The notes below the pieces were generated by a model. It saw nothing but the letters and a program-made list of their open reading frames with translations, was not told the DNA's origin and ran no database searches. DNA of 64,000 nt from Amoebophrya sp. A120 (lineage: Eukaryota; Protista; Dinoflagellata): positions 7,385,794 to 7,449,793 of the forward strand of contig CAJINV010000001.1 in assembly GCA_905178155.1 (NCBI GenBank). The letters are read 5' to 3'. A program made the translations under genes and the position numbers. Of the stretch, positions 1,316 through 64,000 are shown one piece after another (within the stretch, counting starts at the first letter, position 1; each line of letters begins with the position of its first letter).

Positions 1316-4036
1316 TTAGTCCGTATTAAGCCCATTCTGCTCCATCTCTCATCCAACGCAAAAACACCTCCGCACTACTAATCAAGATGGCATCCTCGGC
1401 CCCTGCGAAACGTGTTCGCCGCGGCGGAGCTCAAGTAATGTGCCGAACGATGAGCAGAGACACTGTCATGCTAGCTCATATCTTAGTGATTGCGATAATT
1501 CCTTCTATTTCTACTGTATCTGGTGCAAACAATTAGTCCGGGATTTTTCACATTGTAGTTCATACGCAAAAATACAAATAGCATCAGTAGCTCGAAGCGT
1601 GCTGTGCTGCAGAAGCAAGCACTATTGGGGTCTCCTCTTGATTAGGAAGCGCAGTGTTTTTCCGATGGATACGTCCGCCTGCCCACCCTGTAATTGCGCG
1701 TTACTTTGTCTCGCAGAAGCACAAGAAACCGAGTCCTCCCCGTCCCCGCCCTCCATGGCCGAAAACAGACCCGTGGCCGCCCGCACATCCGGATCCGCGC
1801 GCCTCAAATTGTCGTATTGTTGTTGCTGTGCCGGCGTGCAGTCCCCGGGCAACGTATTCGCGCCGTTCCGGATGCCAGGGCCCCGCACCGGAGCGGACAT
1901 GGACCGAGGCAAGGCTGCAGGCGGGGTCGCCGCCGGCAGAGCTGCGTCATCGCGGTCCGCCGCTTCCCCGTCCATCGGTTCGCCCCCCGCAGCAGCCGCG
2001 CGAGCTTGTCCAGCTTCCAAATCCGCCACTTCGCCCAGATTCTCGCCTTCCAAATCCTGGGCTTCCGGCTCCGCCGCCTCCCCGCCGGGGTACTCCTCCT
2101 CGTCGTCCTCCTCGTCGTCCTCCGCAGCGCCCAACGCCGCGCCCGGCACATGTTTTTGAACGGTGCTGCGCAATTTTTTGTTCGCGTTCACCACCTGCTG
2201 TGTGGCCAGTTGCAACTGCTGCTGGTGGTACTTTTGAAGCACGAGCGCGACGCGCTGACCATGGATGGAATTGACCAGGGCGAGGATTTTCGTCGTCAGC
2301 GACCCCACCTCTTCGCACTCCTATCGCAATGAAATTTTCTGTCTCATGCCCCACCTGGCTGCGGTCCAGGCAACATCCTCTAGTGCAACTTCATCCGCAG
2401 GCCTTTCACAGCCGCGACCCTGCTGCTTGGCACACCAGCACAGATGGCTCGGTACGAAATGAGACACAATCAAAGCAAAGCACCTTTGTCCCCTTCACCT
2501 TCAGGAACTACAGATGTACAGTATATAGGTGGACGCCTTCCTGAGTTGTCGCACCGTTTGCTGGACGTCTAGTCTCATCCTGAGGTTGAGGAACGTCAAA
2601 CCAAAGTACGTCTATATAGTGAACGCTAATGAATGGACACGACCTCGCCCTAGAAATAGACTACAGGCAAAAAAATAATCTTCCACATAAAACGGATTCG
2701 CGAAACTCCTGCGCCACGCATCATACATTCGTATCTTTCTTGCAAGCAGCTGGACGGAGCGAGACCGAACGAAATTTCATTGGAATAGCTTCTCCTGGAA
2801 GGTGCCCAGCAGGTCCTTGTGCTCGATGACCAGCGGTTGGAGCGCGGTGATCTTCTCCGCGGTTTCGTGGTGGTCAGGAGCGGTGCCGCGCGCGTGTTCC
2901 AGCTCTTTCTGGTAACTTCCCACTTTCCGAGTCCACTTTGCAAACTCCTCGTTGATGATTTTGCGTTCCTCGTGAACCTCGGGCGACGGATCGGCGACCA
3001 GCACGCCGGTGCCAGCCTCTTCTGCTTCCTGGTCGTCGTCACCGGCTTCAGTTACATTCTCCCAGTCGTCCTCCTCGTCCTCATTGTACTCGCCACCGCC
3101 GTGGCCATCGTACCCACCCTCCTCGCCCGGGGCCTCCCACTCGTCCGGCGTGGCTTCTTCGGCTTCCTCGCCGGCACGGCCGAGAAACGAAGAACTCCCT
3201 TCAGGGAGGTCCTCACCTGTCCAAGCAAAAAAGATTGTAGATGTAACTTTTTTTTCTTTGGACAGGAATAGCATTACTACAAATCTGTCAGGCATAAGAG
3301 CAAAAACCTCTCATGCGCAGATAGCACGCTAAAACGCGCTTGCACGGATGTCCCGCAATGCATGTCCAGCATGTTGACAGAGAGAGGCAATCATCTTGCG
3401 TGTTGCGCAGCACCACAATAAAGTTACACTAGCAATGTTTTTCTTCTGGATACCGTCCCCGCCGGCATCCGCGGCCTCCGCGCCTGCGCCACCGCCTCCC
3501 ATCACGGCGGGAGCCAAGGAAGCCACAGTCGAAGCGGCTTCCAAGCCAGAGCCGCTAAACAGGGCAGTTAGCTTCTCAAGCCCCTCACTGACACTGCCTG
3601 CTTCAGCACCGGATTTTATGCAACGAAAAAACAATCAGAGCCTGCCCTATCCCGCAAGCCCAACTCAAGTAGAAGTACTCTGCCGCATCAAAATGAACTC
3701 GACACACGCAGGCATTGCAATGAACGGCTGCGGCCGTGCGAGCTACCATCGATAAGTACTTTAGTACCCACATCGAGGGCTGTACCGCAATACCGTGGTC
3801 AGCCAGATCCACTTCGCGTTCAAACGTGCATTGATCTCCTGCGTTGCCTACACCAGTGCCTTTCGACTTGCAAAACAACGACTTCTAGAATCCTTTTCGT
3901 GGTCGCATAACCGCTTTAAAAATCGAAGATAATGCCACCAGAGAACAAGAAGTAACAGAAGACACGCGAGCAGCTTCAGCAGACGATCAGCAAAATAGAG
4001 CAGAGGGTCACTGAAGATCGTTTGTCTCATAAGCAT
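1316..4036 (-). CDS. Multi-exon hypothetical protein with hydrophobic N-terminus and acidic/coiled-coil regions
   Basis: ORFs 3329-3634, 2777-3295 and 1622-2308 join in frame after removing TIR/TSD introns 3218-3452, 2322-2787 and 1350-1671 (e.g. QEK-REEVGSLTTK). Predicted stop TAA at 1316-1318. The 5' exons (3603-4036) are less certain. Confidence 0.55.
1350..1671. mobile_element. Degenerate introner-derived intron (322 bp)
   Basis: Ends CATCCAACGCAAAAACAC and (reverse complement) TATCCATCGGAAAAACAC. TSD is eroded. A GT..AG splice removing element+5 nt gives a short terminal exon. Confidence 0.5.
2322..2787. mobile_element. Introner intron (466 bp)
   Basis: TIR TATCGCAATGAAATTT / TATTCCAATGAAATTT, flanks ACTCC/GCTTC. 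Removal of element+5 nt fuses ORF 2777-3295 to 1622-2308 in frame. Confidence 0.75.
3218..3452. mobile_element. Introner intron (235 bp)
   Basis: TIR TGTCCAAGCAAAAAAGATTGTAGATGTAAC / TATCCAGAAGAAAAACATTGCTAGTGTAAC, flanks TCACC/CCGTC. In-frame join of ORFs 3329-3634 and 2777-3295. Confidence 0.7.
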
Positions 4037-4047
4037 ACCCGCGGAAA

Positions 4048-4131
4048 GAGTCGGAGGAGCCGTGGTCAGAGACAGGGTCGGAGACGGGGTCGAAGCCGGG
4101 GTCGGAGCGGTCAGAGACCGGGTCGGAGCGG
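4048..4131. repeat. Imperfect ~11-12 bp tandem repeat (GGGTCGGAGMC-like, ~7 units)
   Basis: Read directly: ggtcagagac agggtcggagac ggggtcgaagc cggggtcggagc ggtcagagac cgggtcggagc. Confidence 0.7.
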
Positions 4132-4509
4132 ACCCACCCCCAAAAAATATAATGAAGAAAAATCCCCCCTCCCTATACTGACATTCGTCGTTTGTTTATC
4201 TTTCGAGTCGAGTTGCGCACAGGGATTAGATTAAGAAATCTGTCTTGCAAGTCCGCAGCTAGCTTCATACTCGTTCTGCTTCTGGGGTCTCCGCCACATT
4301 ATTACTTGCATAAATAATACACATGCGATGTACTTAATGCTGCTCGGCCTACAGGAGAGCAGGCGTCTGTCACGCTAAGAGGCTGCTCCTCAAGTCGACG
4401 CATCCTTCCCCCCAGGCTTGCGGTCTCCCTCCTGTACCAGTCCGTTACTGCAAACCAGATATTTGACGCTCGTACAAAAATCCGGCATCAGAAGTGTGGT
4501 TTTGAATAT

Positions 4510-5578
4510 CTATTGGAAGTGGGGACTATCAATTTCGATAAACAGCGATTTCGCCTTGTCGAAGAGGCTTGTGGCTGCGGACTTAGCTTTGCCCGCCGCT
4601 TTGTCGGCGAGGTTCTTGAAGGACCCCACTGCCGCCGTTGCCCCGTTCTTGGTCTGGTCGAAAAGATTCTTCCACGTGCTTAATTGAAACTTAGATTGGA
4701 AGTCCCCCAAAATCCACTCTCCCCCCGCACGGTATGACCCTTGAAATTGATGCCTGCTACGAGAAATAAATATAAGCCGCGAAGTAGCAACGCAGGAATG
4801 GAAACCTCAAACCGAATCATCTTCACGACTACGCATGGTCTAAATACAGTATGGAGCTGAAGCCTTTGTTTTGTATTTAGATCGCAGAAGAAGCGGTTTC
4901 CAAACGAGATGCTGCTTCTTCCACGATCTCGGCCTCGAGACGTAGTAGCCCTCGGCGCTACAGACGCATAAGCATCGTGCCTGTTCGGGGTACGTACTTG
5001 AGTCGGTGTTACTCATTTCTGGCGCCTCATGGAAATGGGCAGCAGCCGACGATGACGAGCGCTCGACCTTGAACCAGACCATGCAACGCGGAAGATGAAA
5101 CAACTTCCGGAATAGGGACGATAGGCTTAAGCATCATCATGTATATGCGCCGCATTAATATCTACGTAAGTGTAATGCGTTCGCAAAAGACCAGACGACC
5201 ATCGAAAACCTGCGACGCATTGCAACTTTTTGCAGCCGATGACGAAACTCAGCCTACTAAAAATTGCAGCGGCAGCTTGTATAGTACGGAGTCATTCTGT
5301 CGTAAGCGGCCTACTACTTCGGCAGATCCTACAACGAAGCTTCTTCTCGTGAGCACGCACCAGCTAAAGCATGTCATACAGCCGATTTTTCCCCGATTTC
5401 CTTCATCAGCCCCGAAAAATCGTGGGTTTTCACCATGGAACCAAGCTTCCCCAATTCGGTCTTGGCCGCACCGGCAGCCGTTTTCAACATGGCAGGATTC
5501 GCAGCCAACGCTCCGACATTCGGCGCCAAGTAGATCGCTGCCAACAGCATCTTCAGCTGCCGCTGTTATGTTTTTCAT
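4510..5578 (-). CDS. Probable multi-exon hypothetical protein (Cys-rich segments, then a Lys/Ala-rich amphipathic segment)
   Basis: Co-oriented protein-like ORFs 5249-5578, 4840-5103 and 4510-4710. Junctions not resolved. Confidence 0.35.
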
Positions 5579-5899
5579 TTTCCGCTTCTTTTCGAACGCA
5601 CGCAGCGTCTGCGTCCTGGGACTTCAAACGAATCACAATGTCGTTCGACGTGACGCTATTGGTACGAAGTACAGGACCCAAGAAATAGCCACTGTTCTTA
5701 TATACTCCGGCAAGAAACTTTCGGCGAAGGTGGCGCGATTTTTAAGTAGGGACTTCATCACTCATATGATGTGCATGATGCTGGGTTGCTCCTAGAACTT
5801 GTGCAAGCATGTTGCACGCCTGTACAGCGCATATAACAAAAAAGCAATTCTACTTCTTGCTTCCCATATTAAGTACACGAAGCTTCGCCTTCATTCATA

Positions 5900-7684
5900 T
5901 CACTCGATTCGGCACCATGTCAAAAACATTCGGTTCAAACATAGATGACTACTTGTTACGAACTGACTTACCCGATTGTTCTGCACCCGGGTCTTGACCG
6001 CCTGGATCATCATCATCAGTGGCATGTCGAGCATTCGTTGTTTTGTGTTTTTGCGGACCGCCTTCTTTCCTGGCGAGAGCGTGAACTGGTACGAGGGGCC
6101 GGAAAACCACTTGGCGTAGGAATTGCAGACTTCGTCCTCGTAGGCCTTTTTCGCGCCCCCGCGGTAGACCCCCATCGACAGCGTCGCGACGCCCAGCGTC
6201 CACTTTTTGCTCCACGGCTTCACCACGTAGTCCGGCATGTAGAAGTCCGTAGCGTGCTATGGAGAGGAAAAAGTTTGTCGGGGCCACTATTTCATGATCC
6301 CAGGCTTTGTGTAGAAATTTTCCAGCCGTCCTAACTTTTGTCTTGCTGCAGAAAAACGAGCAAAAGGGGCGAGAAAAAGGAGAGAACGACGAGCTTCTCT
6401 GCGAGGATGCATTTGAGTGATCGCGTTCTTTCCTACGTTTTTGTCATGCAAATATGCGCCGCAAGAGGAATCGCGACAAACTTTTTTTGTTGGATACGTG
6501 CATGGGCTGTCCCGCGTCATCCCAACCAGTGATCATTTGCACGTGCCAGCGCATGACCAAGCTCACCTTCTTCTCGTACATCATGGCGTACGAGCATCAC
6601 CATGAAAATCATCCCCGCACCGTCCCGGGGCCTCCGTGCGAGGGCTCTCGCAACAACAACATGCAGTCAATACCGTTAAGACAGTGTCAAATTGCGGTTG
6701 GTAACACTCTAGACATCTTGCAAATTATCGGCCAGAAAAAAATCGAGGACTGTGCACCGCCTCAAAACTTTTTAGATGCGCTGAAGGAGCATGTTCATCG
6801 TTCGGCCTCAACAATCTACTGTGTCAAATGACTGCTTCAGCACCCCTTACATAACCACAAATGGAGAGCAAATACAGACTCATCGGTTGATTGTGTGCGC
6901 ACATTTGACCCCGGAAGGAAGGTGGAAATATGAAAAAACTGCAGTTTGATAACGGGTACAAGGTCGCCGGTTTATTGTGAAATTTTTGGTTACCATCTTC
7001 GCAAGCTTTTTTCGCTTTCTCCACGTCCTGCGACCGGCACGTGACTTGGGCGGGCTTGTCACCGCAGTGGTACGTCGCGCAGTGGAGAGGCTGGTGGGCT
7101 TTCGGCGGGGCGTCCTCCCCGCCCGCGAAGAACTCGTCCGTCGCATCATCGTAGTTCACCTGGTCCGACTGCGCAAAAATGACAAAGTTCGGCATGGGCG
7201 AAAGCATCCCCACTTTCTGCACCGCAGCGAGCGCTTCGGGTTTCTTGCCTGGTTTGGATCCAACCAGGACCATGCGGCCGCCCCAGCTGTACTCGCCCTG
7301 GATGTGCACTTTTGCATCGTCAATGGCGTTCTTGGCCACGTTGAGCCCGGTAGCACCCCCGTGTTCCTGCCGCGTCAGGTCGAAGCTGAGCCCCTTGAAA
7401 ATCCCCCGGCCCTGGAAGATGTGCTTGCGCATGTCGAAAGACGACGAACCGTCGTTCAGCCCCCAGTCATCATGGGTCAGCGGTTTCGGGTCCCAATCAT
7501 CCGGTACTTCATCGCCACCGCCGTCGTCTGCAGCGGCGAGAACCTTGGGCTGCACAAACGTCGAGTTGCCCGACATCAACCCGAAAGCATCCTCCAAAGA
7601 GTGCTTGTCGTCAACCTCATTCGCAACGCGCGCCTCCACCCCGTGGGGCAACAGCGCGCAGCACAACGCAACAGCGCGTCGCAT
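5900..7684 (-). CDS. Putative secreted protein (signal peptide-like MRRAVALCCALLPHGVEA)
   Basis: ORF 6824-7684, middle exon 6497-6594 (YAMMYEKKVSLVMRWHVQMITGWDDAGQPMH) and ORF 5900-6238 join in frame across introners 6595-6951 and 6258-6496. Confidence 0.65.
6258..6496. mobile_element. Introner intron (239 bp), TSD CGTGC
   Basis: TIR TATGGAGAGGAAAAAGTTTGTCG / TATCCAACAAAAAAAGTTTGTCG. Perfect 5-bp direct repeat at 6253-6257 and 6497-6501. Removal gives MH-ATDFYMPDY in frame. Confidence 0.85.
6595..6951. mobile_element. Degenerate introner intron (357 bp)
   Basis: Ends CATCACCATGAAAAT / TATCAAACTG, flanks ACGAG/ACGGG. Removal gives LYP-YAMMYEKK in frame. Confidence 0.55.
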
Positions 7685-9104
7685 CTGCAGCCCGAAGTTG
7701 TGCTACTACTTCTTCGTTTCGGCAACAACTCGTCGTCCAAGCGTTATCTGCTCCTCTCTTTGCCTCCTTGCGGACAGTTTATTTCTCACCCGTCCGCCAG
7801 ATTTTGCAGTATGCTGAACTCCAGAGTTTTTAAACAGAAAAGTTCGTCCGTAAAAACGGTGTGACGGTTGTTGGTGACTTCTTTTCAGTCTCTTCGCGAT
7901 GTAGTTTTGTTCTTCCTTTTGCTTAGTGTGTAGTTTACAACTGCTTGTTTGTGTTTCGTTAATTATCTCGGGTAATAAAAGTAAAAATTTTTGATTGCTT
8001 TCAAAACCTCCTCGTGGTCCTAGTTATCGTTGATAAAAGGTGAGAGAAAGTATGGGCTTCACTCAGGGTGTTCCCCATACCACTGAAAGATTATTGGGAA
8101 AAAGCTTTCTTTTGTCCAATCATGGGAAAAAGTTTTCTTTTGAAAATAGAGCTGTATGTCGTGGCACGTTGAACGATTGATGGCCGGGGGCGCAAGACCG
8201 ATATAATAGCAGTTATGCACGGTTACTCTTCAGTACGTCACTACCGAAGCAAATACTCTTGTGAACGATAATCCGAGGAACGAACGTACGAAAACTAGGA
8301 CGAACCGATTGCTTCCTTGCTTCCATTAGATGAGGAACCGACAGCTTTGGCGTTTTTCGATGCAAAACTATTGCTGTAATCTTTTTCATCTTCCTCGTAT
8401 ACACTGGGAAAACGCTTGCTGCAAAGTACGAAACCGAGCACCGCAGCTTCCTCTTTGTTCTGGACGCTATCTATACCGACTTTCGTTTTCAGAATCTCTA
8501 TGACAACCACTGAGCTTGCGGCAGGTTGACAATATTAATATTGATGGCACACGCTACCGAAATGACATTGATGCATTGGAAAACCCATTTCCTGACAGAT
8601 TTGTGACCGTGACAGGTACAAAACACGACCAGGTCCGAACCAATCTCGTCAGACACACTGCAGCGTTCCAAACTTGGAGGACAGACAATTTTTTTTTATC
8701 CAGGAGTTTATCAACCTAAAAAATCATTATTATTTGCAATGCCAGAGACGCAAAAGACATACGTCGGAGTACACGACTCTATCGATATTCTCAATGTCAG
8801 CACGCACGCATAGCGCACAAACTGCCCTCCGCTCCTCAAATTGGTCTTCCGGCGGCGGGGGATCGACGCTTATTTCGTCGTCACTGTATTATCGACCGAA
8901 CCGCTTCTGGGGGTCTTTATCATGATGAAAACTTTTGTCATATTCGTAAATTTTTACCAGTCAGTGCAAGTTGCCGCTTTCCACGCTGGAGAAAGCGGCT
9001 ACTTACTCATCTGTCCTCGTCGATCTCTCTGAACTCGAACTCGGTAAGTAGGAAAAACAATTGTGACTTCATCCCTGACAACATATCGACGACAAAAGTT
9101 TTCT

Positions 9105-32230: not shown

Positions 32231-32471
32231 TGTTGCGAAGTTTTCATTTTGTTTTATTGTCTGAGCTTCTCTTTCTATGAATGTCGCGCCCGGAGGGCGA
32301 TATTGGTAACCAAATGCGTGCGCGAAAATCTAACCAGCGCGAAAGCCTAACCAGCCGCGCGGCGAAAGCGCGGTTGCCACCACCATTTCTTTTTAATTAG
32401 AGTCCCACTTTTTTTAATTAGAATCCCACTGCTATCCCGGGTCATCGGAGGCTTCCGGATTCGCATTCAAA

Positions 32472-32583
32472 GCTTATCGCAGGAGCCTGCGGGCCGCCGC
32501 GGGCTCCACCACTTCCCCGCGGCCCTAAAGGGCCGCGGACAACTACTGTCGCCCGCGGCGGCCCGCAGGCTCCTGCGATAAGC
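32472..32583. repeat. Perfect 33-bp inverted repeat enclosing a 10-bp-stem hairpin
   Basis: GCTTATCGCAGGAGCCTGCGGGCCGCCGCGGGC at 32472-32504, its reverse complement at 32551-32583, and inner CCGCGGCCCT-AA-AGGGCCGCGG. Confidence 0.85.
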
Positions 32584-51200: not shown

Positions 51201-54200
51201 GCCTGGTCCTCCGCAGACATCTTGGACCAGACCGAAAAGGGCTTGGCCACCAAATAGGCCGGCACTCCGCGGTCATAGTGGCGTTGCACGACCTTTCGCC
51301 TAGCCGCGTTCGCCAGGGGCGACGCAGAAGTCGTTCCTTGCTTTTTCCTATCAAATGTAAAAGTGTCTGGGTCTGGAAGAATGCAACTTGTCATGCTAGA
51401 TCTGAACCTTCGCTACCTGCCATACTCTAAAGGAGTTTTTTTCTGGCTTGAGGACCCCCTCCCACCCCCCCGATCTCGGATGTGCGTGAGCCCATAAAAG
51501 TCGTGAGACTTGGACATGCAAACTTGCGTGGGTGCTGCAGAGTCGCATGAAAAACAAAAAACTCTGAGCGGGCTGCACCACACATGCACGACCGAACGAG
51601 TAGGAAGTAATCGACAAGAGGCTGGAGCTAGAGGTGTGCGGCACCTCAGGTAACTTGCATTGGCGACAAGAAGATGAAATAATTTTGTTTTTTTGAATTG
51701 TCAGACATTTGCGTATTACGGTACAAAACAGGTCAGCACTACCTCGATTGCGGTGCTTGCAAAGCGAAGCGGTAGCTGTAAGATGGATTTTTTGTTTGTC
51801 ATCATGGAGCTCTAGTATGTCCACATGAGTGTCGCCGGATCTTAGGGCCCATCTATGCACCCGCCTGGTGGAGCACGCTGTGTGCTAGGAACGGGGCCGG
51901 GCATAAAAAGCGGGGTGCGGCCCCTTGAATTACGTGGACTTTTTTCATGTATGCAGCCAAAAACGTCGTGTGTATTGCGCGGGGTGAGTGGATGGAGTCC
52001 TTGGGTGCGGCCCGCTGGAAACCACCACAACACCCACCTTGGCGCTGGTAAACAGAAACTGGGCGCTTCCGGGTGCGGCCCTTCAGCAGGTAAATATGGC
52101 GGCTGCCTTCAAGAGTAGTAAAATGTAGGAGCTAAAAGCCAAGAAGTATCTGTCAAAAACCCACCCAGCTCAGCCCGTTGGCAAGACGGAAAAAAAAACA
52201 TCTGCCCCTGCAACCAACAAATGCGGGATCCGCCACCTAGCGCTACAAAGATTCCAGAAGTAAGCAAGACGACACGAGAGAAATAAAAGGGTAGAGACCT
52301 AGATCTACGTGGGAACACGTGGGAACGCGGGGGGAGCAGGGGGAGCGGGGACTTCCGCTACCGACAGCATCGGCAGCGAGGCCTAACGCCCCTCTGGGTG
52401 TGAGAAACGAGGGAGGCACCTATAGACAGTCAAAAGACCATCCAGGATTGAGGAAGTGAGATTGGTACAATAAAATGTGACCAGGAGCGACTTGTTAGGA
52501 ACACTCCAACAACCTCTACCTACCACTGCCCTCGATTTCACTAAAGAGAAAGCCGAAGCTGACTCACCCCGAGTACGCTTCCCGAAGTCAGCTCATCCGC
52601 CCGTTTCCAAGAGCTGACAACGAGGCAATGTCCTGAGGGGCCGTTGCGAACCTCCCCAATCCTGAACGTCATGTGGTTTCAGCTCTTAGAAACCGGCTGA
52701 CGAACGAAAACGCACATCTCTGTACCCAGTGGCAAGTACAAGAGAGGCAGGGACATAGGGAGCACCGAACCGCACATCCAACTCGACCCTAGGTAACCCA
52801 GAGATCCTAGTCCCGGGAATCTTGGGGACCACGCAACAGACGAGCGGCAAAACAAGGAAGGAAGCCACCACCAGCCAAGCAGCACGAGAGCGACAGCGAG
52901 GGGGTCTTGGCCGAAGCCGCTGACCCGGGAGCACCTCGCATGAAGCTCACACACCACAAGTCCCGGAGCAAGCTCCGATGGCGCCACCAACCCGTCTACT
53001 CACCCGAACGTGCAGGGGGCGACGACGCCGACCAAGCGAGAGCCTCACACAACGGGAATTTCCCGCAAGGCCTAATCGTCGACCTCGCTCACTGAGATGG
53101 AGGCGAGAACGGTCTCGGTAGGTAATCCAAAATGCGACCAGAACCAACCAACCGGACGCGGGAAGCGGCGACGACACACGCACTACGACGGGCCCAACAG
53201 ACACCTACCAGACTGACCTCCTCTATTTGGGAGTCCGCGCCAACTCTATTTGGTGGCGGTCGGGTCAGGGCTCAATTTGGCTCATCTGACTCAGTCTGGG
53301 GCGCGCTGTAGAAGGCAAGGCGCACATGCTAGATCTGAATTGAATTGAATTGAATTGAAGTAGCGACGCCCCCTGACGTGCCTCGGTAGCCGATCGCTCT
53401 CTGAAGCATGTAAAAATCTGTGTTGCATGATTACCAAAAGTCGTCCAGTTTTGACCAAATCGGGAGCGAGTTTCTCATGCAGGATAGGCATGAGAGGGAT
53501 CGCGCAGAATCTGTCATGCGAGGTCCTGCGTTCCAGACCTCACGGGTCATGGAAAAGCTGCATGACAAATCGCGCATTCTTCCAGACCCAGACATTTTTG
53601 CATTTGATATTTCCACGACTTCGATCCAACCATTTCCGCACTGAGCTGGGCGCCTCTGCGCTGCGACGCTGTGTAGTCCTGCACCGTTTTGGAGAACTCT
53701 AGCGCAAACTGCCACTGACGCCCGTCGTTCGTCTGTGTCAGTTGGTATATTTGCTCGACCAAAATGCGGACGAGAGAAAGCAGAAAGCCGGTGCCTATAG
53801 TCCGCAGGTACTGCGCGCTATACGCCAGCCTCCAGGCAACACGGCGCTCCTCCGACCCGTCAACGGTAGTGGGAAGCAGAATCGATTTCAGGGAACCCGG
53901 AACCCCCTCGGGCGCTCCGACCGAAAGCACCCGCGCGACGTCGTGTAATTCAGAAAAAGTTTTCAGAGTGGTCTGGGCCTGGGGGACACTCGTTTGTTCT
54001 GCGTGGTCTCCACCACCAATCACCCCAACGGGGTACTTGGGGACGATACCGCCTCGGCGTCGTAGTTCTTCATTCCCCTCCTGCTTTTTTGGTTCATATA
54101 CGTGAGTCTTCACTACTTCCAGGAGATCCTCGGTCAAAACAAGTCCCGAGTTTCTCTGTACCACCGTGGGGTTTGCGTGTGCTTTGGCCCTTTCGTGGAT

Positions 54201-57200
54201 GCAGTGGACAACCTATCCTCTGGAAGAGCCTTTCCCCCCTAGTTGTACGCTCAAGATTATTTCGATGCAACTTTGCGACAACTTCCGTGGGGAAGAATTT
54301 GGATGTAAAATCTTCCACCCCCTACTTTGAGGCGTGCAAAAACTACTTCCCAGCGTGAGTTGCGGGAGTCGTAGACAGCCTAGTAAAACGTGGCCAAGAT
54401 ACTTCGGAAAATCGGTCGCATCGCGTCACCATATGTTTTTTTCGTCGTCGCAAATGCAGCACGGCCGCAATGCGGCATACTTCATCCCAGAAGTCAAAGA
54501 ATAGATTGAAGAATGAAGTAGACCTTTTACATGCCGAGAGCCGAATTTCCGGCCACTACTTACAAGAATCGTCACACTTGCCGGTGCGTCAAGCACGCTG
54601 GCATACCCGACAAGCAAGAACATATCTTGGTGCGCACTTGAAAATAAGAATAGACACTGACAAATTACTTTCGCTATCTAGGGATCGGACAGCGTTCTCA
54701 CAGAGGATATGATTGCTAAAGCGTGAGATTCCAGCCACTCATCTGCCATTCTCTCTCCGTATGCCCCGATGTTCATAAGCAGCGGGTCGGTCAGCAGTGC
54801 GGGACTCGTCAAAATCAACTCCTGCTTGTAGCGATCTGGACGGCTGTCTCGGAAGGCGCGGTCATGCTTATAATCATGCATCCCGATGTAATCAGAAATA
54901 TCAAATGTAAAAATGTCTGGGTCTGGAAGAATCCGAACTTGTGATGCTGCATTTGGAACCCTGATGCTGCATTTGGATTCTAAAAAAATCTGTAATGCAT
55001 GAGTAGCAAAGGGAATGCAATTTTTGCTACGCGGATAGGGCATTTGTCATGCGCAATAGGCATCAAGAACCCCTCGAAAAAGCTGTGAAGCTACGGCATG
55101 CATCACAGACATCATGGCTCATGCAAAACGTGCATGAATCTTCCAGACCCAGATATTTTTGCATTTGATAAGAAACGGCGTACACCTTTATTCCCATGTC
55201 CTTTATAATTCCGGCACTCCACCAGTACCGGGCAGATAGACTGTCTGGCCAGGCTGCACCCGTTTCCGGGATCTCAAGCCGAATGTCATGGGTGTCGTTG
55301 GGACCTCCTCCGGGGCGTTCCCAATGCCACCGCTCATTCCATCGCGGCGTGCGAATGGCAGTCACGTGCTTCTCGTTCACGAGCACGTACGCTCCCCGTA
55401 GCAAGCCGTGATGAGGGCTACTCCACATCACGGGTGAGTGCCCGTCCATCATGTACAGCATTGCGTCCACTCTGACCTTGTAATGAAGCACTTTGCTCCT
55501 GCACGTCCTCGCATGACCTTCCACGGGATGATCTCGAAAGGTGCCGCCACCCGCTCCTGAAAACCGGCGATCGCGCGGAGCACGTTCGCACGAAGCTGCG
55601 ATGTGGTCAAACGAGTCTTCGGTGCTGCCCTTTCCTTCTACATCGCAAAACCCGTCATCTTCTGCTTCTGGCGCAGCGTCGACGCACTCGTAGTGTGCCC
55701 CCACCACGGTGCCTACAAAATCGCTATCGGATTCCTTAAAAACTGATAGTGCGTTCCGCAGCTTGAAGGACGGTACGACGCCGCTATTCCGTGAAAATTA
55801 ACCATCCCCATCCTTTTTGTGATGCAAAACATGGAGTTGGGTCCGCTTTTGTCACGCATGAGTACTCGACTGCACCACATTAAAAACCTTCCCACCGTCG
55901 CCGCAAGCAGCTACGGACGCAGGAGATCGAGGGCCAGAACCGCGAAAAACATTGCGAGTATATCTACTTCATCCCCGGACGCTTTTATATCATTTTGTCC
56001 ATCCCCGGTCGGCTTTTCTCATGCAAGAAGTGGACCTGCTCCCCTGCAAGAAATAGCAACTTACGCCACGACATCACCCACTCCGAAGAGCAACAAAACG
56101 GTCGAAGAACAACCCCTGATTCCGAATCGGCGTCGCTCATGCAAAACGTCGATGGGGATGGTTACTTAATTTCCAGGGCATAACCGTAGACAGGGTGTGA
56201 CTCCCACTCCAACTGCGAGGCTGCCGGCACCCTCTGCCCCTGGGCGGCGTGCGCGCTGCTCCCTCGCGTCGCGTCTATTCAGATGAAAAATGCCCCAAGC
56301 CCAGAACTTGGCAGCATTTGCATTCCGCAAACCTTTCCAATGGAAACATTCCCCGTCCTCCATATATCAGCATCACAAGTTTTCGATGCTGAATAGCTCA
56401 AATCTGTGTTGCAAAGGAACCCAACCGTAGCCGGATCTGTTATGCAAAAGATACCGTGCAAAGATAGATTCTGCATCAGAAAGGCAAAGGCTTTCATTTG
56501 AAAACTTTGCATGAGAAACACTTGTAAGTTCCGGGGTGGGAGCATTTTTCATTGTAATAGCGTCGTGCTGGTCTTCCTCCACCGCCGCTTCCGTGCGCGC
56601 AGCGGGAGATGAGGACGACGCGGCTGCTGGCGATCCTCCACTTCTACTTGCCCCACCATCGTGACTCATGGGATAGACTTCAGGCAGAGCAGCAGCAGCA
56701 GCCGCGGGCGTCGAAGGCCATTGGCGAAAGTTGATCCGCGCAGGGACGTGCACACGCACCAGCGTCCTGTGAAACTGCATGCCCGGTATGTACTCGACGT
56801 CCAGTGTCCACAAGAAAAAGCAGGCAGGGCATACTTTTGGATGCGAAAAATAACGAAGCGCGAGCCGATAGCGTGCTGCTTCGGATATGCGCTTTACAGA
56901 TTACACTTTTCCTGTGTACTTATGATTTCATATGTTGGCAGCTAAGTAGGCCCTGCCTGCTTTTTTCTGTGGGATATCAAGGCCGCCACGGAGCACCCAG
57001 TCCGGTAGGGAATCCAGAAAAACGTCCCCCAGATGGGCCGCCCACCCCCGCTCCGCACTATTGGGGTGCATGAGATCGGTTTCCAATGGAACTCGTAACA
57101 CGGCGTCGAGATGCAGGGCAAGTAGCCGGCAACCCACTGTAATGCGCGGGTGATTATAAAAGGGCGAGGACTTGTCGACACGGCGTATGGTCCCGTCCAT

Positions 57201-60200
57201 TGTCAGCAGCACTCCAAGATTTCGCTGCACCTTCCCCTGTGCGACGAAGGCCACGCGTTCCAACCGAGGCCGCAGAATGGGGAGAGTTGTCTCGTAGTCT
57301 TTCAATTCAGCGCCTCGCAAAACTTCTGCGGGCTCACGATCCAGGTTTCCACGCTCCGAAGCATCATACCCGCATAGTCGTGCGTCGCCCTGGAATCCAG
57401 GATCTGTAGGTTTACGTTATGACATATAAAAATAGTAAACAGATGATCGAAACAAGAGAAAAAGCTGCCTGCAGACACACGTGGTGCAGTGACGCTTGTA
57501 TTGTTCTTGTTCGGGGAAATTATAGTAAATTGATGTGAAGCAGTATGCTTGAAAAGAGATAACGATCATTGCCAAACGGTACTGTTCCTCAGACTCCGAA
57601 GGTCGTCTATCAGGTCCGAACCACCAGCGAATCGGGCCAGTAGGCGCTCGGGCACTGCCATCAGTGCCTCCACCACGTGATGATCATGCTCAAGCGCTCG
57701 GGTGGGATGCGTAGCGGCTACCTCGTCTCCGTCTTCGGGCTCTTTGTCTACTGCCTCTGAGGGGGCCCTGCCCTTGCTGCGCCTACTTGCTCTGCGTCCT
57801 GCTTTCTCCCAAGCAGCTGCTGTTACCGGTGCAGGGGCCGCCTCCGGAACCGTCGGTGCAACCGCGACGTCGTTCCGTCTCCCCTCCGCCTGCTGCACGC
57901 CAGGCAAAAGATCCAGTTTGTGGTTGTGGGCAGCGTGAAGCAGCCACTGGCCTTGTCAAGTTGAAAACAGCTACCAACGCAGCTTTCTTTTAAAAAAATT
58001 AGTTGAACTTGATGCTGCAAAGAACCCGATCAAAAAGCCTCTGGTCTATATCTATTCTCTCGCTGGCGCATAATGTATAGAAGTGCGCAGCCAATACAAG
58101 AATCAAAGTGCAAATGGACGCCTCGTGAATTACTACCGTTTCAGCTCGCTCCCGAGCTGCAGTCTCTTTGGAAATGGAGCAAGAAGAAAACTACAGCTAA
58201 GCACCTGCGATATCGGACTTCCTTTCCAGCCTATCCGTATGGCGGGGTTGGGAGTTTTCAACTGGATAGGCGAGCCAACTTCACATGCGCCACTTCCAGG
58301 TCGTCGCCTGAAAGCAAACTCGCATGGATCCAAAACCGGTCCACCGGATCGGCGTGCGCTGTTGGCGACGAACCACCTGGCGGGGGCACCCAATTCAGAA
58401 ATTCGGCGTCCACCTCGAGAAATGGCCCCGCCTTGTATAGCTGTCGCACATGGTAACGCAACGACATGGCCACCCCCAGGTGGCTCCCCTCTCGTCCCGG
58501 AGTCGTGTGCATCTGTTTTGCCGAGGTTTCCACCGCTCGCTCCACTTCCTCCTGTGGCACAGCACGAAGCACCCCCCCGAGCAACGGTAGGGAGGGACCC
58601 AGCGGCCCCCACTCAATAGTCACGGGGACAAGATTCGACTCGGCCGCCTCGCGAAAGCCGTGCTCGCCTTCGAATTCACCCAGGGTCAACGGCGCGAAGA
58701 ACCCTGGAGCATCCAGAACTGCCTCCGGACCAGCAGCAGCAGGCTCCTCGTCCCCATGCGGAACCGACCGGAATACCCCCAGAAAGAATCCGTCAGGCAA
58801 GATGGGGTCGGCACCTTCGTGGTCTGCATCATCGTGCAGCACCCGCGGGAACAGATTTGCGAGGCGTACCTCGCTTCGCCGCAAGTCCAAAAAGCTCCTT
58901 TCGGGATGCACATTCCCGTCGTACTGCTGTCGCAACTCGTGATCCAGATAGACAGAATTCGCCTTGTCCTCCGGCCACCAGAGCCGGCCTCCAATCCACT
59001 CGGACCCTGGACTAGACACCGACGACGGAAAACTTAATTCCGGCCTCGGATACGGCCACTGCATGATCTTGTCGTGCACAATTTCGAAGAGTTGTCCTGG
59101 TTGAGGCCGAGAACTCGCTCGCACCTGGGCAGCTGGAAGGTGGTGCAGGCTTTGTTCCCTCACTGCGTTGAAGTACTCATACCAGGCCCTCGGCAAGTGC
59201 TGCCACTCTTCACGAGGCAGAAATAACTGTTCCACCGCGAGTTCGATGCCAGTGCGTTCGCCGAGGCCAGTTTGTTCACCGTACAGAGGCTCTCGTGGTC
59301 CCGTCCTGGACATAGTGGCTTCGATTTCAGACAACGCATCCGAGATCTCATTGTAGAGAAATACAAACTCACTAGCCTGATTTCCTTTAACAAGCAAAAG
59401 GGAGCACTTCGAGGTCATCAGAAAACCGTCGCTCTCCGGTAAATTGGCCACCGCGAGGTTTGCGTGGCTCAAGTAGCTGCTAGCTTTGCGCACGATGTTC
59501 GAGAAGTTCGAGTTATGCCATGCGGTAAACTTCAACAACAGCCGGGCCTTGAGTTTGGACAGCGCCGGCTCCACTTGCTTGGGGTTCTTTCGCGCGCTGC
59601 GTCGTGCCGTGGCCAGGTGCTGGCGCTCTTGCGCCTGGCGCTCTTGCTCCTGATACTGTTCCTGTCGGAACAGAGAACTGTAGACGGGGCCGGAGACCAT
59701 GGCGGAAAGCATTCCCGGCACTCCGTGTTGCCTGTGCACGCGCACGAGGTCGGCATAGTTGACCTCTCGATCCGGGTGGAAGTGGAGCTCCCTAGTATCC
59801 GAGAAATTCGCTTCGACCCGGGCCTTCAGCTCTGCGAGGATGCGCTGCCGCTCGGACTCGTTCGCGATTTTGTCACGCAGAGCCAAGAGGGTAGCACTAG
59901 TCTTGCCCTCATCGTCGTTGGCGAAGAGCTCAAACACCAAAAAGTGGACCCAGTGACGCAGCGACGCGAGCGCTTCCCGGGTTCGCTGCGTGAGTGCCAG
60001 AAACGAGTTCCGGACCCGCAGCCGCCCTTCGTCGTCGGCAAATGCGACACCCTGCTGCACGTGCTCCAGAAAAGCTGCCACACGGTCTTGCCACGGACGA
60101 AGCACAATCTTCTGGAGGCGGGGAAAAACCGGCGCCAGCAGTTCCTTGGCAGCGAGCATCATATTATTTCGCTGCGTTTGCTCTCGAGGAAAAAGTTCGT

Positions 60201-63200
60201 CGAAGGCATCGGTCCAACGCTTCTGGTATTGGTTGTCATTTTTAGCGTCCCAGACCCAGTCATCGACACGCGTGAGCACCGTGAGTAGGTACACTTCACG
60301 CATCACGAGCCCAAAGAGCCCCTTCAATGCCACGTACCAGTTAACAGCAGTGTGGCTTTTGTCTTTCGTCTTCAACTGAATTGCGTGTCCGTAGGGGAAA
60401 AGTGTGTGATCCACCCACTCCAGCTCTGCGTTGCGCGCCGCGAGCTCCGCTTTTCCGACAGCGCGAAGGGCACGGAACTGCTTTTCCAGCGCTTCGGTGC
60501 CCGGTTCGCGCGGCTGCAGCAGGGCCCGCTGCGCCAGCCCGTCCCTGCTATCCGCACCTTCATAGCATCTCGCGTGGCTGTATGTGTAATAAACACTCGC
60601 AGATCTGGTTGTACCATGGGACGATACCGTCTCTTGCTTATGGCGCTCCAACAAAGTGCTTCTGGAGGTCGGCTGCTCCGCAGACGGTCTCCACACGCTC
60701 CAATAGGCGGTTTGCTTTTTGCCACCATTCTTCTTTCTGTTGGGCGTTGTCCAACTTCGCCCGCATGACCAGGCCCACCGCACTGGAGAACCGGGGCGCA
60801 GCACCACCGGAAGCGTTTCCCACACCTCCCGCAGGTACTGCAGCATTTTCTCTCGGGAGAAGACGTTGATAAGGTGATCCTGGATGTTCTGCTGCTGCGC
60901 CAGTGAGTGCCCGGGCTGCTGCTTAAAGAGCGCACGCCACATGTCTTGGAAGAAGCGGACGTGAACCTGCGGCTCCGTTGCGGGCTCGCTTTCGGTGTGC
61001 GCGTAAATGTCCAACCGGACCTGGCGGTGGTCGATGTCCACGACGGGGACAGGTTCCAGTGGCCGCCTGCCTATTTGATTTCGCACGAAGTTCAACCGCT
61101 CCGCGTGATTGGTCTCGGCCTCGGTGCGCCGCGAAGCCTCCAGGTCCTCCAGTAGTCGCTCCATGCGCCGCAGCTGCACCCCCAGAAAGCAGACCGCCAG
61201 CAAAAAGTCGCCCCGTTCCATCTGCTGCGTCTTCCGGAGCCAGTCGCGCCCCGCCGCGTGCAGCTCGTATAAGGAGGCCCGCACCACCAGGATCAGATTG
61301 TCAAGTGGGTGCGACGCGTGGTCCGACGTGTGTTGCACGTTCCCGGGTACCTGCCAGCGCATCTCCGTCGCACGGGCTGCCGCGCGACCCGCCGGTAGTT
61401 GCTGCAGCTCCTGGAGCGAGTTCACCGGGTCTTTGGTTTCAAGGAGCGCCTCGATATCGTTAGGAAGCAGGGCCAAGTTCTTCTCAGCTGCGCCGACGAC
61501 ATCTTTATATGCGTGCGGGTACCGCTCGGCATCGGTTAAGGCCATAACCGCACTGCCCAGCTCCGCCGACACGGAGTGAGTGAGGACGAGCGCGGCCGCA
61601 CGCACGTAGGGAACGCAGGGGCCCTCGCGCAGAAACGCATACTCCTGCGAAAAAGGCTCGAGAGTTTTGCGCCCCCGCGGGTCGGTCGCTGCCGACTCTG
61701 CTGGCCTGACCGCACTAGTCGCCGCTGCCTCGGTTGTCAGGGTAGAGAGGAAGGTTAAGATCGGCTCCCGTCCCGCTGGCGCAGTCTGCAGCAGTGCCAC
61801 CACGTGGCCCGTCCGCGCCGCTAACGTCTCCTGCAAAGCGCGCACGAAGCCGGCGAGCCGCTCCTCGGACGCGAGTGGGGGCGTGCGCCCCGCTGCGGTG
61901 GAAGCCCCGGCCCGGCTGAGCAGGTATTCGAGCACCTGTGTCAACCGCCTTCCTTCCTGTGCACGCGCTTCCGCTTCTTTCACCCAATGACTATCCGTTT
62001 TGGAAAGCCCCCGCAGTTGCTCTTGAATCTTCTCTTTCTGGTCCTTGTACATAGGCAGTACTGCAATGTCTTCGGGACGGAGGGGACCTAATCAAGTGCA
62101 AATACATGAAATACCCCCGCGCGCAACGTCTCACGAACGCGGCACAAGACCATCAAACTTCAACATGCAAAAAGCCCCCTCTAAGCACGTATTACACTAG
62201 AAAAACTCCGTCGTGCTGCTTCCAGCAATCAAGTCTCTAGTAGCATCACATAGCGAATAAAGGCACGAAGGCGAATTATCGGTATGCGCGAGCGGCAGCT
62301 CAACTTCTGGTTTGATAGATCCGTCACGTCCGAAGTGCCAGAAAGCAGTGTCTTGACGATCTGCACGACCATTTGCGCTGATGCCGGGTTGCTGTGCTGG
62401 TCCTCGGCCCCCCGGCGCTTTTTGCGGCCAGAGGCGTCTGATCTGGGTGCGCCCGCGGCGTGGTAGTACTTCCGCAGAGGGTTCACAACGTCTTGCTCCA
62501 ACCGCAGCTCTCGCCTACGCGCCCAGTCAACCGTCTTTTGGTTTATTCGCAAGTTGTGTTCAGAGCCCTGCACCTTCTCCGTCCAGCGATTGTCGTCCAC
62601 GCGACCCCCGAACACGTCCTCGGTAAAGAGACCCGAGAAATGCTCCAGCAGCATCTTCTCGTAGCAGGAGTCGTAAATGGCCAAATTGTTGCCCCACTTG
62701 CGCTCTGCCGGCACGAGCTCTCTTACCTCCGAGGGTGCCCCCGTGTTTTTGGTTCCCTGCATTGTGCCCTCCCAGAGCTTCGGCGCTGGACCTCCCGAAG
62801 CGCCAAAACTGTACTCAAACTTCTTCATGTTGTCATTCATCGCGAGCAGCCCTCGATATGCCGCGGGCCCCAGCGATTTGTCGATTCCGCGCATCGAGGC
62901 CCAGGACGGCATCACTGCGGGGCACTGGTTGCATTGCTCGGAGCCGGCCGTGGTTCCCCGGCGCAGCAATGCTTGTTTCAACACTCGGACTTGTTTCATC
63001 ACGAACGGCGGCAGATCAAACCCAGCCGAGATCGTGGACTGCGCGGTCAACGTGGGGAAATAGACCTCCTCCGATTCTGTGGGCGTGCGAATGCGCTGTT
63101 CGTGCCTCGAAGTGCCGTTCTCGTCGTCGAGACCCCCCAGCTCGAACTGCCTCTCCTGCATCTGGACTGAATTTACGAGCGCGCGCCGGCCCAGCGTGAG

Positions 63201-64000
63201 CCCCAGGTCCACGACCTTAATGGGGATTTCCAGCCCGCTTTTGTCCCCTGGAGCGCCGGAGCTCAGGTCCGCGTGCTTCGCACTCCACACCGCCCCCAAC
63301 GAACTTCCTTGCCGAATCAACCCCGCGGACGGACTTTCCCCCGCCTTCATTGCGCGGTCAAAGACGCTCCTATCAACTCTCAAGCGCTACACTCTCAGCT
63401 TTTTTTACATGAATTTGCGACGCAACAATAGCGCAAGCGAAACGAGGAAGCTCCTGCTCGGGAGTCCCCCCTTACAGATTCGGTACATAAATATTTCGCT
63501 GTTTAGCGCTTGAAGTAGAATTCGTCATGCCAAGTGGCTTGATCGTGTGAAGTCTGATAGGTCTTCTCCGTGAGAAAAATCACACAACAGCTAACAATGT
63601 AACGTTTGAGACTTCCATACCTGCGCTTCAAAGCGTTTACCTCCGCCTGGTCCTCTTCGTAGCGGGTGCTGTGGAAGTGTTTCTGCTTGTGGTTGAGGTC
63701 CGTCTCCAGCTCACCCCGGTAATAGCGGTGCTTGGAAAAGTGCGCAATCCACTCGTTCATGCGACGCTGTACCCGTAGCGTGTCGGCCGCAGAAGGGTAC
63801 TTCGACACCAATTGCTCGAATAAGCTTTCCCGCATATCTACTTCGAAGTTTCCCTCGGTCGCGTGATCTTATCCAGCTTTGCAAAAATTATACAGCGCGT
63901 TGTGGGTTAAGAAGAAAAATGAAAATCTCCGTCACGATGAACTTGTCCGATTTTGTTCGCAAAGGCAGACGATCAAAACGCGGATAGAGCTCATCTTGTC
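45286..64000 (-). CDS. Giant (>4,400 aa, 5'-incomplete) protein with Upf1/Sen1-type SF1 helicase C-terminal motifs
   Basis: At least 12 exons join in frame across 10 introners and one GT-AG intron (~57405-57582). Motifs VSSVDAFQGREKKVII and RLNVAITRAKNLVIVV at ~48085-48260. Stop at 45286. Confidence 0.75.
46858..47183. mobile_element. Degenerate introner intron (326 bp)
   Basis: Ends TATGCA / TATGTA, flanks ACTCG/ACTCT. Removal gives HARV-GDEVHAGKP, joining ORFs 46907-51394 and 45286-46842. Confidence 0.7.
51407..53324. mobile_element. 1.9-kb nested insert with 15-bp TSD CATGCTAGATCTGAA
   Basis: TSD at 51392-51406 and 53325-53339. No convincing ORF; internal short repeats and hairpins. Confidence 0.8.
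53340..53399 (-). mobile_element. 60-bp 5'-truncated retro-like insert with (TTCAA)4 tail, TSD TCTGAA
   Basis: (TTGAA)4 at 53340-53359, TCTGAA at 53334-53339 and 53400-53405. Subtracting it gives the 262-bp empty introner. Confidence 0.65.
54214..54709. mobile_element. Degenerate introner intron (496 bp)
   Basis: TATCCTCTG at both ends. TSD eroded by transitions (CAACC/TGATT). In-frame join LAII-HCIHERAK. Confidence 0.65.
54899..55170. mobile_element. Family-A introner (272 bp), TSD AGAAA
   Basis: Family-A TIR, perfect TSD, body similar to 39770-40029. Removal gives VYAVS-DYIGMHDY. Confidence 0.93.
55785..56182. mobile_element. Introner intron (398 bp)
   Basis: TIR TATTCCGTGAAAATTAACCATCCCCATC / TATGCCCTGGAAATTAAGTAACCATCCCCATC, flanks GCCGC/ACCGT. 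In-frame join PVYG-VVPSFK. Confidence 0.8.
56276..56559. mobile_element. Introner intron (284 bp), TSD GCGTC
   Basis: TIR TATTCAGATGAAAAATGCCCCAAGCCCAGAACTT / TATTACAATGAAAAATGCTCCCACCCCGGAACTT, perfect TSD. In frame after removal. Confidence 0.88.
56805..56976. mobile_element. Introner intron (172 bp)
   Basis: ~32-bp TIR containing AAAAAGCAGGCAGGGCMTACTT, flanks TCCAG/TCAAG. Removal gives RGGLD-VEYIPG. Confidence 0.85.
57954..58268. mobile_element. Introner intron (315 bp)
   Basis: TIR TGTCAAGTTGAAAAC / TATCCAGTTGAAAAC, flanks GGCCT/GGCGA. Removal gives KLAR-QWLLHAAH...LPGVQQ in frame. Confidence 0.78.
62090..62317. mobile_element. Degenerate introner intron (228 bp)
   Basis: Ends AATCAAGTG / TATCAAACC, flanks GACCT/GATCC. 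Removal gives VTD-PLRPEDIAVLPMYKD. Confidence 0.55.
63371..63619. mobile_element. Introner intron (249 bp)
   Basis: TIR TATCAACTCTCAAGCGCTACACTCTCAGCT / TATGGAAGTCTCAAACGTTACATTGTTAGCT, flanks GCTCC/CCTGC. In-frame join LKRR-VFDRAMK; a GT..AG splice is also possible. Confidence 0.7.

Follow-up and report, generated by a model that had tools for sequence, protein, structure and literature searches.

Introners, introns that derive from transposons, have been described in Amoebophrya A120, a marine parasite. Farhat et al. (2021; PMC7789003) give their IR consensus as TAT, seven less-conserved bases and at least three A, and report direct repeats of 3-5 nt (including a 5-bp example), a likeness to MITEs and non-GT-AG ends; all nine of the top A120 non-canonical pairs in their Table S4 have the form NT-NN, and the leading pairs of A25 the form TT-NN. 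In the same paper, splice sites are variable relative to the hairpin, no clear splicing signature is recognized, general transposase mobilization is ruled out, hairpins are proposed to bring the exons together, and U1 snRNA is undetected in A120, with a novel protein subunit suggested in its stead. Gozashti et al. (2025; PMC12130899) note a Ginger-like or integrase-like ORF for a single A120 family, family 38; in 40 of their 58 A120 rows, the other families are assigned TSDs of 2-6 bp, varied classes and mixed splice mechanisms. Introns of Fritillaria borealis and of euglenids are similarly MITE-derived, bear TIRs and TSDs and are non-GT-AG, those of Fritillaria being removed by an adapted spliceosome (PMC11282704; bioRxiv 10.1101/2025.08.15.670264). 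Among transposable elements, TDD-4 and TDD-5 (Ginger2/TDD) make 5-bp TSDs, and Ginger2 ends in TGTNR and prefers AT-rich targets (PMC2836005); IS3EU/GingerRoot has TA..TA termini and 6-bp TSDs (PMC10045372).

The elements in the 64,000-nt stretch analysed here (the window; Table 1) are the published TAT-ended introners of A120; what had been noticed about them is partly confirmed and, for the most part, already described. They lie in the Amoebophrya sp. A120 genome, a window exon being 100% identical to a protein named as from that organism, and their IRs start with TAT, seven variable bases and at least three A, although the A-run is absent in some families. The direct repeat at the exon-intron boundaries is 5 bp long, perfect in seven window elements and decayed in others, and 17 of 18 elements have ends in RNA that are not GT-AG. 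They are also repeated in the genome, one family having four copies in the window, with loose ends at other sites in run X5. A sequence-only reading of the window had pointed to the IR/DR-bounded non-canonical introners described in Amoebophrya, and the window elements proved identical with them. Its start motif (TAT, TGT or CAT) fits 18 of the 19 starts that it listed, the exception being 62090, which begins AAT, and its seven perfect 5-bp TSDs were recovered exactly (6258, 14687, 39396, 39770, 51349, 54899 and 56276). For its element at 43295, neither the right end nor a TSD is convincing, and a GT-AG intron on the plus strand (43294-43475) is a possible alternative. Four introners, at 1119-1300, 3617-4031, 4148-4540 and 4733-5378, were absent from that reading. 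For the element at 63371, an alternative end at 63559 would also preserve the frame. In the held-out positions 1-44000, motif pairs with a TIR of at least 10/20 and a TSD of at least 4/5 numbered five, against 0-2 in 12 block shuffles.

Table 1. Introners, control introns and host genes in the window (TSD, target-site duplication).
Feature	Position	Strand	Intron, joint and remarks
Host gene 1	439..8084	-	spliced ORF 954 codons; 9 introners and 1 GT-AG intron
Introner, 3' UTR of gene 1	1119..1300	-	intron 1115-1301; joint 1114>1302, unambiguous; ORF stops before it
Introner, sole GT-AG case	1350..1671	-	intron 1346-1672; joint 1345>1673, unique register
Introner	2322..2787	-	intron 2318-2788; joint skips 471 = 466+5
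Introner, family also in related loci	3218..3452	-	intron 3214-3453; skips 240 = 235+5
Introner	3617..4031	-	intron 3613-4032; skips 420, unique register; right end picked after the joint
Introner	4148..4540	-	intron 4144-4541; skips 398 = 393+5; right end picked after the joint
Introner	4733..5378	-	intron 4729-5379; skips 651 = 646+5; ends picked after the joint
Canonical GT-AG intron, control in gene 1	5563..5971	-	joint 5562>5972
Introner, perfect TSD	6258..6496	-	intron 6254-6497; skips 244
Introner	6595..6951	-	intron 6591-6952; skips 362
Member of ~260-bp family with nested 2.2-kb insertion, removed as element+5	14687..17178	-	X1 contig joins 14680 to 17178; perfect TSD
Candidate introner, 322-bp family	39396..39717	-	perfect TSD, on sequence grounds
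Candidate introner, 260-bp family	39770..40029	-	perfect TSD, judged from sequence
TAT-GAAAA left end without matching TAT right end or TSD	43294..43475	.	possibly a plus-strand GT-AG intron
Host gene 2	44469..62089	-	at least 4019 codons open once spliced; AAA_12 helicase domain in one exon
Introner	46858..47183	-	intron 46854-47184; skips 331
Member of 260-bp family with nested 2-kb insertion	51349..53609	-	intron 51345-53610; skips 2266; perfect TSD
Introner, decayed TSD	54214..54709	-	intron 54210-54710 (AT..TT); skips 501, unique register, unambiguous
Introner, 260-bp family, perfect TSD	54899..55170	-	skips 277
Introner	55785..56182	-	intron 55781-56183; skips 403
Introner, perfect TSD	56276..56559	-	skips 289
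Introner	56805..56976	-	intron 56801-56977; skips 177
Canonical GT-AG intron, control in gene 2 transcript	57404..57582	-	joint 57403>57583
Introner	57954..58268	-	intron 57950-58269; skips 320
Probable old introner, left end AAT	62090..62317	-	+5 joins open frames of ~350 and 1272 codons; no RNA bridge
Probable introner, family without A-run	63371..63619	-	+5 connects an 82-codon frame to one of 350 codons; no RNA bridge

Evidence for removal of the elements comes from contigs of the transcript-type runs X1-X3 over two stretches of the window; the RNA class of these runs is a guess, none of the runs listed as carrying the sequence being recorded as RNA, and the contigs show the majority form only. 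All 18 element joints in these contigs, 14 from the earlier list of 19 and four from the missed introners, skip exactly the element plus 5 nt, and the same contigs also skip GT-AG introns, which serve as controls. A single register is common to all 18: 4 nt to the left and 1 nt to the right on the plus strand, or, in the sense of the transcript, an intron that takes in 1 nt ahead of the 5' TAT and 4 nt beyond the 3' ATA. Under uniform offsets, the probability of a common register is 2.4e-5 for the 18 elements, and approximately 0.003, calculated by hand, for the 14 previously listed ones only. In the DNA-type run X5, a 14,271-nt contig is colinear across 439-14709 with the elements present, and the few reads that aligned from the raw RNA runs X7-X9 (7, 3 and 0) fall on the termini of a single element family. 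Removal of element+5 also mends RPB1, a plus-strand gene in related loci, free of gaps at 4/4 sites, where +2 and +8 leave a gap, and RPB1 protein homologues are colinear across all four insertion points. The hosts tested by RNA are all minus-strand genes, so that we infer, rather than observe, that the register follows the transcript. The claim that all 19 listed elements are removed as element+5 is thus borne out for 14 by transcript contigs. Of the other five, 39396, 39770 and 43295 fall beyond the two stretches covered, and no contig spans 62090 or 63371; for four of these five +5 gives an open minus-strand frame, as +2 or +8 also would. The sequence-only reading was right that most elements cannot be spliced as GT-AG introns: the GT or GC donor and AG acceptor of spliceosomal introns occur in one of 18, and one more would be GC-AG only in another register. 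We regard the fixed register as highly probable. The window elements share their organism, TAT IR consensus, 5-bp repeat example and non-GT-AG ends with the introners of Farhat et al., but differ from the variable cut sites described there in having a TSD of 5 bp throughout and a register fixed at 1+4 (PMC7789003). No published statement of a fixed register was found in the literature passages searched; figure S23 of PMC7789003 may show one, as the '1-5 nucleotides' of its legend may be the same offsets.

The larger sample consisted of related loci (L001-L133, 574 kb) from a second assembly, of A120 or a relative; in length-limited searches, one of their ORFs matched only its own contig, and RPB1 hit no protein named as A120 (best match 86%). 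There, a perfect 5-bp TSD flanks 135 of 160 non-nested copies of one family, and none has a TSD of 4, 6, 7 or 8 bp. A scan that did not require TAT found YRT at both ends in 244 of 311 TSD-5 pairs, from many families. Introners fall within the 4-5-bp TSDs of Ginger2/TDD, but lack its TGTNR termini (714 of 744 element ends are TAT and 2 are TGT), and their targets are even in composition, not AT-rich (PMC2836005). With IS3EU/GingerRoot they share the TA..TA termini but not the 6-bp TSD (0/160; PMC10045372). No coding element was found that could carry the Gypsy-integrase-like DDE transposase with H2C2 finger expected of Ginger2/TDD, and the introners yielded no transposase for placement in a tree. 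Element interiors fall into 30 clusters, while a short end motif is alike at both ends, and sub-terminal motifs (TAT-C/G ... G-N-AAAA) are common to families and the same at both ends. Of the end consensus proposed from the window, TAT and the 5-bp TSD persist in this sample; the 'GAAAA' run was too narrow, as position 10 is G at no more than 51 and 52 of the 321 ends and the A-run is missing in several families. Both orientations occur in genes (28/19 and 11/11), orientation in the related loci being inferred from a codon score. The window and these loci have no flanking sequence in common, and no empty sites were found at the DNA level.

The elements are short and multicopy, with TIRs, a TSD of fixed length and no coding capacity, as is characteristic of MITEs, and a non-autonomous TIR transposon origin is very probable. 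The transcript joints and the TSD counts in related loci support the earlier view of TIR transposons with a 5-bp TSD that are removed scarlessly as element+5. The single transposase lineage that had been proposed with it was not demonstrated: no transposase was found in 22 ORFs from long elements and candidate long pairs, and Pfam recovered neither a transposase nor an integrase among the 131 longest of 203 ORFs (200 aa or more) from the related loci; in the literature, a single A120 family has an integrase-like ORF. No autonomous partner with the same TIRs came up in the window, in the 574 kb of related loci or in three viral-contig scans, which used three TIR patterns. The elements at 14687 and 51349 were rejected as autonomous partners, each being a short family member with a nested insertion and no transposase Pfam match; four long pairs (L013, L044, L054 and L059) cover host sequence or adjacent short elements, and their TSD matches seem to be coincidental. 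Several unrelated transposase lineages could instead have been at work, TAT and the 5-bp TSD dominating through the survival of scarlessly spliced exon insertions, a scenario that we find doubtful. The 30 clusters of interiors are consistent with it, as are the various classes and 2-6-bp TSDs that Gozashti et al. assign to A120 families (40 of 58 rows, PMC12130899), and the 1+4 register would by itself select 5-bp TSDs. Yet the sharing of sub-terminal motifs at both ends exceeds the needs of donor function, and the published TSDs were probably called automatically, from annotated boundaries free to slide within the TSD.

The explanation that we favour, with moderate confidence, is that non-autonomous TIR introners with a 5-bp TSD are cut in the 1+4 register, likely by a host spliceosome with a relaxed donor and a distance-set acceptor. 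From the observed register, we consider the spliceosome to be the probable splicing enzyme, reading transposon ends in place of GT-AG. At the DNA step, a DDE transposase, possibly integrase-like, would insert short TAT-ended elements at unselected sites through a 5-nt staggered cut. The RNA step would remove an intron of the form N + element + NNNN, in which N-TAT is likely read as a relaxed GT-A-T donor and the acceptor likely placed by distance, not by AG. The acceptor signal is probably a U-run at -19 to -15 with ATA at -7 to -5, where there is a candidate branch A. The mRNA would retain four bases of the upstream TSD copy and one of the downstream copy; 1 and 4 add up to the 5-nt duplication, so that the coding sequence would return to its original state without a scar, and because TAT is read inward at both ends, either orientation works. 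Such a register would explain the low-cost invasion of exons by transposons, even in RPB1. For the splicing of the published introners, a fixed 1+4 register gives exact, testable predictions. Under it, the boundaries of the approximately 30,000 annotated A120 introners could also be reassigned, since aligners can slide within the 5-bp repeat. In a tentative and broader form, all signature-less non-canonical introns of A120 (tens of thousands) might obey N-TAT...ATA-NNNN, a U1-less spliceosome having dropped +1 G and AG and measuring 1 and 4 nt, in exact agreement with the 5-nt staggered cut of a single integrase-like transposase lineage, so that insertions would be born as scarless introns in any orientation and exon position. 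A genome-wide, AG-independent and distance-set acceptor would, if true, make for an unusual spliceosome.

The sequence-only reading had suggested that the terminal RNA stem defines the splice sites. Such a hairpin could set both cuts for an endonuclease and ligase outside the spliceosome, as has been suggested for the nonconventional introns of euglenids, the offsets of 1 and 4 reflecting enzyme geometry. We think this unlikely. It is consistent with the lack of AG, the free +1 base, the undetected U1 and the exon-bridging hairpins of Farhat et al. (PMC7789003), and when 16 spliced elements were folded, TIR pairing was strong in six; terminal pairs, however, had a predicted probability of approximately 0 in seven, including 1119 and 3617, which are nonetheless cut at the exact, unique register. 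The first TIR base shows no change at the donor end against 10 at the acceptor end (p=0.002 pooled), the element ends thus acting like an asymmetric donor signal rather than a stem; seven of these 10 are A-to-G and would keep a U-G wobble pair. Among TIR substitutions as a whole, G-U is not in excess over A-C (226 vs 243 across the 321 elements, and 24 vs 26 for the window ones), and the second TIR position shows six pair-breaking A-C changes but not one wobble change. All 18 window joints have T at intron +2 and A at +3, the last four bases being free. A120 introners differ from the introns of euglenids, which require a conserved stem, and from those of Fritillaria, which have defined end dinucleotides (AG-AC, AG-AT), whereas in A120 the fixed bases are limited to +2 U and +3 A (PMC11282704; bioRxiv 10.1101/2025.08.15.670264).

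A new spliceosome subunit or domesticated transposase-like factor that binds both TAT...A-run RNA ends, replacing U1 and the AG check, seems improbable, though it overlaps with our preferred explanation. One short motif at both ends of all families with differing interiors would accord with such a protein, as would the novel subunit suggested by Farhat et al. in place of U1 (PMC7789003) and the divergent U2AF paralogues that serve the non-canonical introns of Fritillaria (PMC11282704; bioRxiv 10.1101/2025.08.15.670264), but the unequal constraint on the two ends is explained by ordinary donor and acceptor recognition. Direct repeats and hairpins promote template switching, and the RNA nature of the runs is only guessed; even so, joined forms arising from reverse-transcriptase template switching or from element-free DNA are largely excluded, as four joints share no bases at the junction, joined forms reach a depth of 604 against 7.4 and 2.9 for retained forms, the joins restore ORFs of 954 and 4019 codons, GT-AG introns are likewise gone from those contigs, and the X5 contig is colinear.

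On the acceptor side, a U-run bias between ends in the window (12 vs 1, p=0.003) has no counterpart in the related loci (39 vs 33). The A at -7 is invariant in the window (18/18) and varies in 5 of 321 related elements, without end bias (10 vs 5, p=0.3); a branch A fixed at -7, which the window suggested, was not upheld in the larger set. Canonical introns all have GTA donors, both in the window (5/5) and among those read in L038 (4/4).

We confirmed that elements in the window are absent from transcript-like contigs. Contigs of three putative RNA runs (X1-X3, whose RNA status is a guess) were aligned to the window, X1 to positions 44001-64000 and X1-X3 to 1-20000. They skip 18 elements, comprising 14 of the 19 listed by an earlier sequence-only reading and four that it had missed, and the skipped length is the element plus 5 nt in 18/18 element joints, those on 1-20000 being among the joints listed. 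Such removal had been claimed for all 19 elements and is seen for 14 of them; the claim that most are not GT-AG introns held, as only 1 of the 18 spliced elements has GT-AG ends. The GT-AG introns 57404-57582 and 5563-5971 are also absent from these contigs, and retained forms of a single element and a single canonical intron occur at low depth (7.4 and 2.9). The DNA-type run X5, aligned to 1-20000, has a contig colinear across 439-14709, so the joined, element-free form is not seen in X5 over that stretch. Open reading frames after splicing reach 954 and at least 4019 codons, and one spliced element sits in a 3' UTR, so that frame selection is not by itself a sufficient explanation of the rule. 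Raw-read runs X7-X9 were aligned to 44001-64000; RNA reads of X7 and X8 (other samples, labelled as the same species) align solely to TIR ends of the 260-bp introner family, at 51349, 53580 and 54899, and leave the genes unmatched.

The cut can be placed at joints where the copies of the target duplication (TSD) have diverged. The sole offset common to 18/18 joints puts the cuts, in transcript sense, 1 nt ahead of the 5' TAT and 4 nt past the 3' ATA (1+4 register), and four joints (1119, 1350, 3617 and 54214) permit no other. Under uniform offsets a common 1+4 register has a probability of 2.4e-5 for the 18 joints, three of which involve missed elements with ends picked in part with the joint already known, and of ~0.003 for the reading's 14 elements only (hand calculation). 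We infer that the register depends on the transcript strand; the RNA-tested hosts are all minus-strand genes. The register predicts NT-NN terminal pairs, in agreement with all of the top nine A120 pairs in Table S4 of Farhat et al. (2021; PMC7789003).

Right ends and TSDs in the window were searched using sequence alone. Exactly seven elements have a perfect 5-bp TSD, as had been proposed, and 18/19 listed starts are indeed TAT, TGT or CAT, the exception being 62090, which starts AAT. In the held-out 1-44000, an end matrix trained on eight elements gave five pairs with TIR>=10/20 and TSD>=4/5, and 12 block shuffles gave 0-2. A search for the right end and TSD of 43295 found no convincing right end; 43294-43475 resembles a plus-strand GT-AG intron with ends like a decayed TIR pair, and it may be an introner turned canonical.

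For a larger sample, one TIR pattern retrieved 135 loci in metagenome contigs, of which 80 were listed, all from a single assembly; they were selected around one family, and the counts are not genome-wide. After exclusion of 10 nested pairings from 170 paired copies, 135/160 had a perfect 5-bp TSD and 0/160 one of 4, 6, 7 or 8 bp. Scanning 80 long loci without the TAT requirement gave 311 pairs with a 5-bp TSD, belonging to many families, 244 of them YRT at both ends. GAAAA did not survive as an end rule: position 10 is G in only ~16% of ends in this sample, and the A-run is missing from some families. At the plus-strand RPB1 locus of the second assembly, removal of element+5 gives a gapless protein at 4/4 sites, and removal of +2 or +8 does not. 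This locus (1-12031, gene and flank) holds at least nine introners detected or paired, one of them inside a canonical intron (7517-7756). The second assembly and the window have four element families in common and no flanking sequence; if that assembly comes from another species, the families extend beyond a single strain.

A codon score trained on window genes oriented 321/372 elements. The first TIR T (intron +2) shows 0 donor-end vs 8 acceptor-end changes in these 321 related elements, and 0 vs 10 with the window included (p=0.002). Seven of the 10 acceptor-end changes are wobble-compatible, so this bias alone does not exclude a stem. The suggestion that a terminal RNA stem defines the splice sites is nonetheless disfavoured: TIR-wide, G-U and A-C number 226 vs 243, with no G-U excess, position 2 shows pair-breaking change only, and folding predicts no terminal pairs in 7/16 spliced elements. 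Since nearby canonical donors, in the window and at the RPB1 locus, all start GTA and often read GTAT, N-TAT looks like a donor with a relaxed +1. The -7 A is invariant in window elements and varies in 5/321 related ones; an acceptor U-run bias is present in the window only. Genes carry both orientations of a family, and both orientations of the 260-bp family are spliced in the window (14687 vs 51349 and 54899). With moderate confidence, we regard MITE insertion and AG-independent spliceosomal removal as the most likely mechanism: a MITE would insert first, and the spliceosome would then remove it independently of AG.

Other features of the window
Feature	Positions	Remarks
Exon	11679-12716	100% identity to protein named Amoebophrya sp. 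A120
Three GT-AG introns	12694-13658	deduced from the length of contigs; donors GTAGGC, GTATTT, GTATCC
Pfam match	20430-21842	cAMP-receptor-like GPCR domain
Pfam match	17146-17811	WD40 propeller
Pfam match	46910-51412	AAA_12 helicase domain; the protein has >4000 residues
GC-rich palindrome, ~110 bp	32472-32583	adjoins assembly gap (N 32584-33481)

The feature is real and the system already known. The accessible text of PMC7789003 describes non-canonical introners of Amoebophrya bounded by inverted and direct repeats, as the sequence-only reading had stated, with an A120 consensus of TAT followed by seven variable bases and three or more A, and direct repeats of 3-5 nt (one 5-bp example); it terms splice sites variable relative to the hairpin and reports neither U1 snRNA nor a transposase for A120. 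In the part of Gozashti et al. (2025; PMC12130899) available, one A120 family is given as Ginger-like, '5-bp TSD, TA/TA termini' (40/58 A120 rows). Introner class, end consensus and integrase hint are therefore previously published. This analysis adds the invariant 5-bp TSD together with the fixed 1+4 register and its donor-side +2 U constraint; we did not find this stated in the literature texts reached, but the Fig. S23 legend of PMC7789003 may give the same offsets.

A single transposase lineage behind all elements is plausible and unproven, as TAT-ended elements with 5-bp TSDs would also be favoured by the splice register itself. Scans of the 131 longest of 203 open reading frames of at least 200 aa in the second-assembly loci, and of viral contigs, found no transposase, and no long TIR element encoding a DDE enzyme. 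From the portions of the sources at hand, Ginger2 (PMC2836005) matches in part, sharing the 5-bp TSD but ending TGT vs TAT here, as does IS3EU/GingerRoot (PMC10045372), with a TSD of 6 vs 5 bp. Elements 14687 and 51349 were rejected as autonomous partners, both being short family members with nested insertions. The insertion in 14687 (14740-16955) has a T-run at its start, a flanking ~19-nt direct repeat and a tandem duplication of 300 bp that carries a telomere-like AAACCCTAAACCC motif; it is multicopy in X5 and possibly a non-coding retroposed element. The 2-kb insertion in 51349 (51399-53400) had no Pfam match at threshold. Nesting of this kind may explain the published retrotransposon class of some A120 introner families. 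The 2-kb insertion shows a direct repeat of 14 nt and a run of TTGAA close to its right end.
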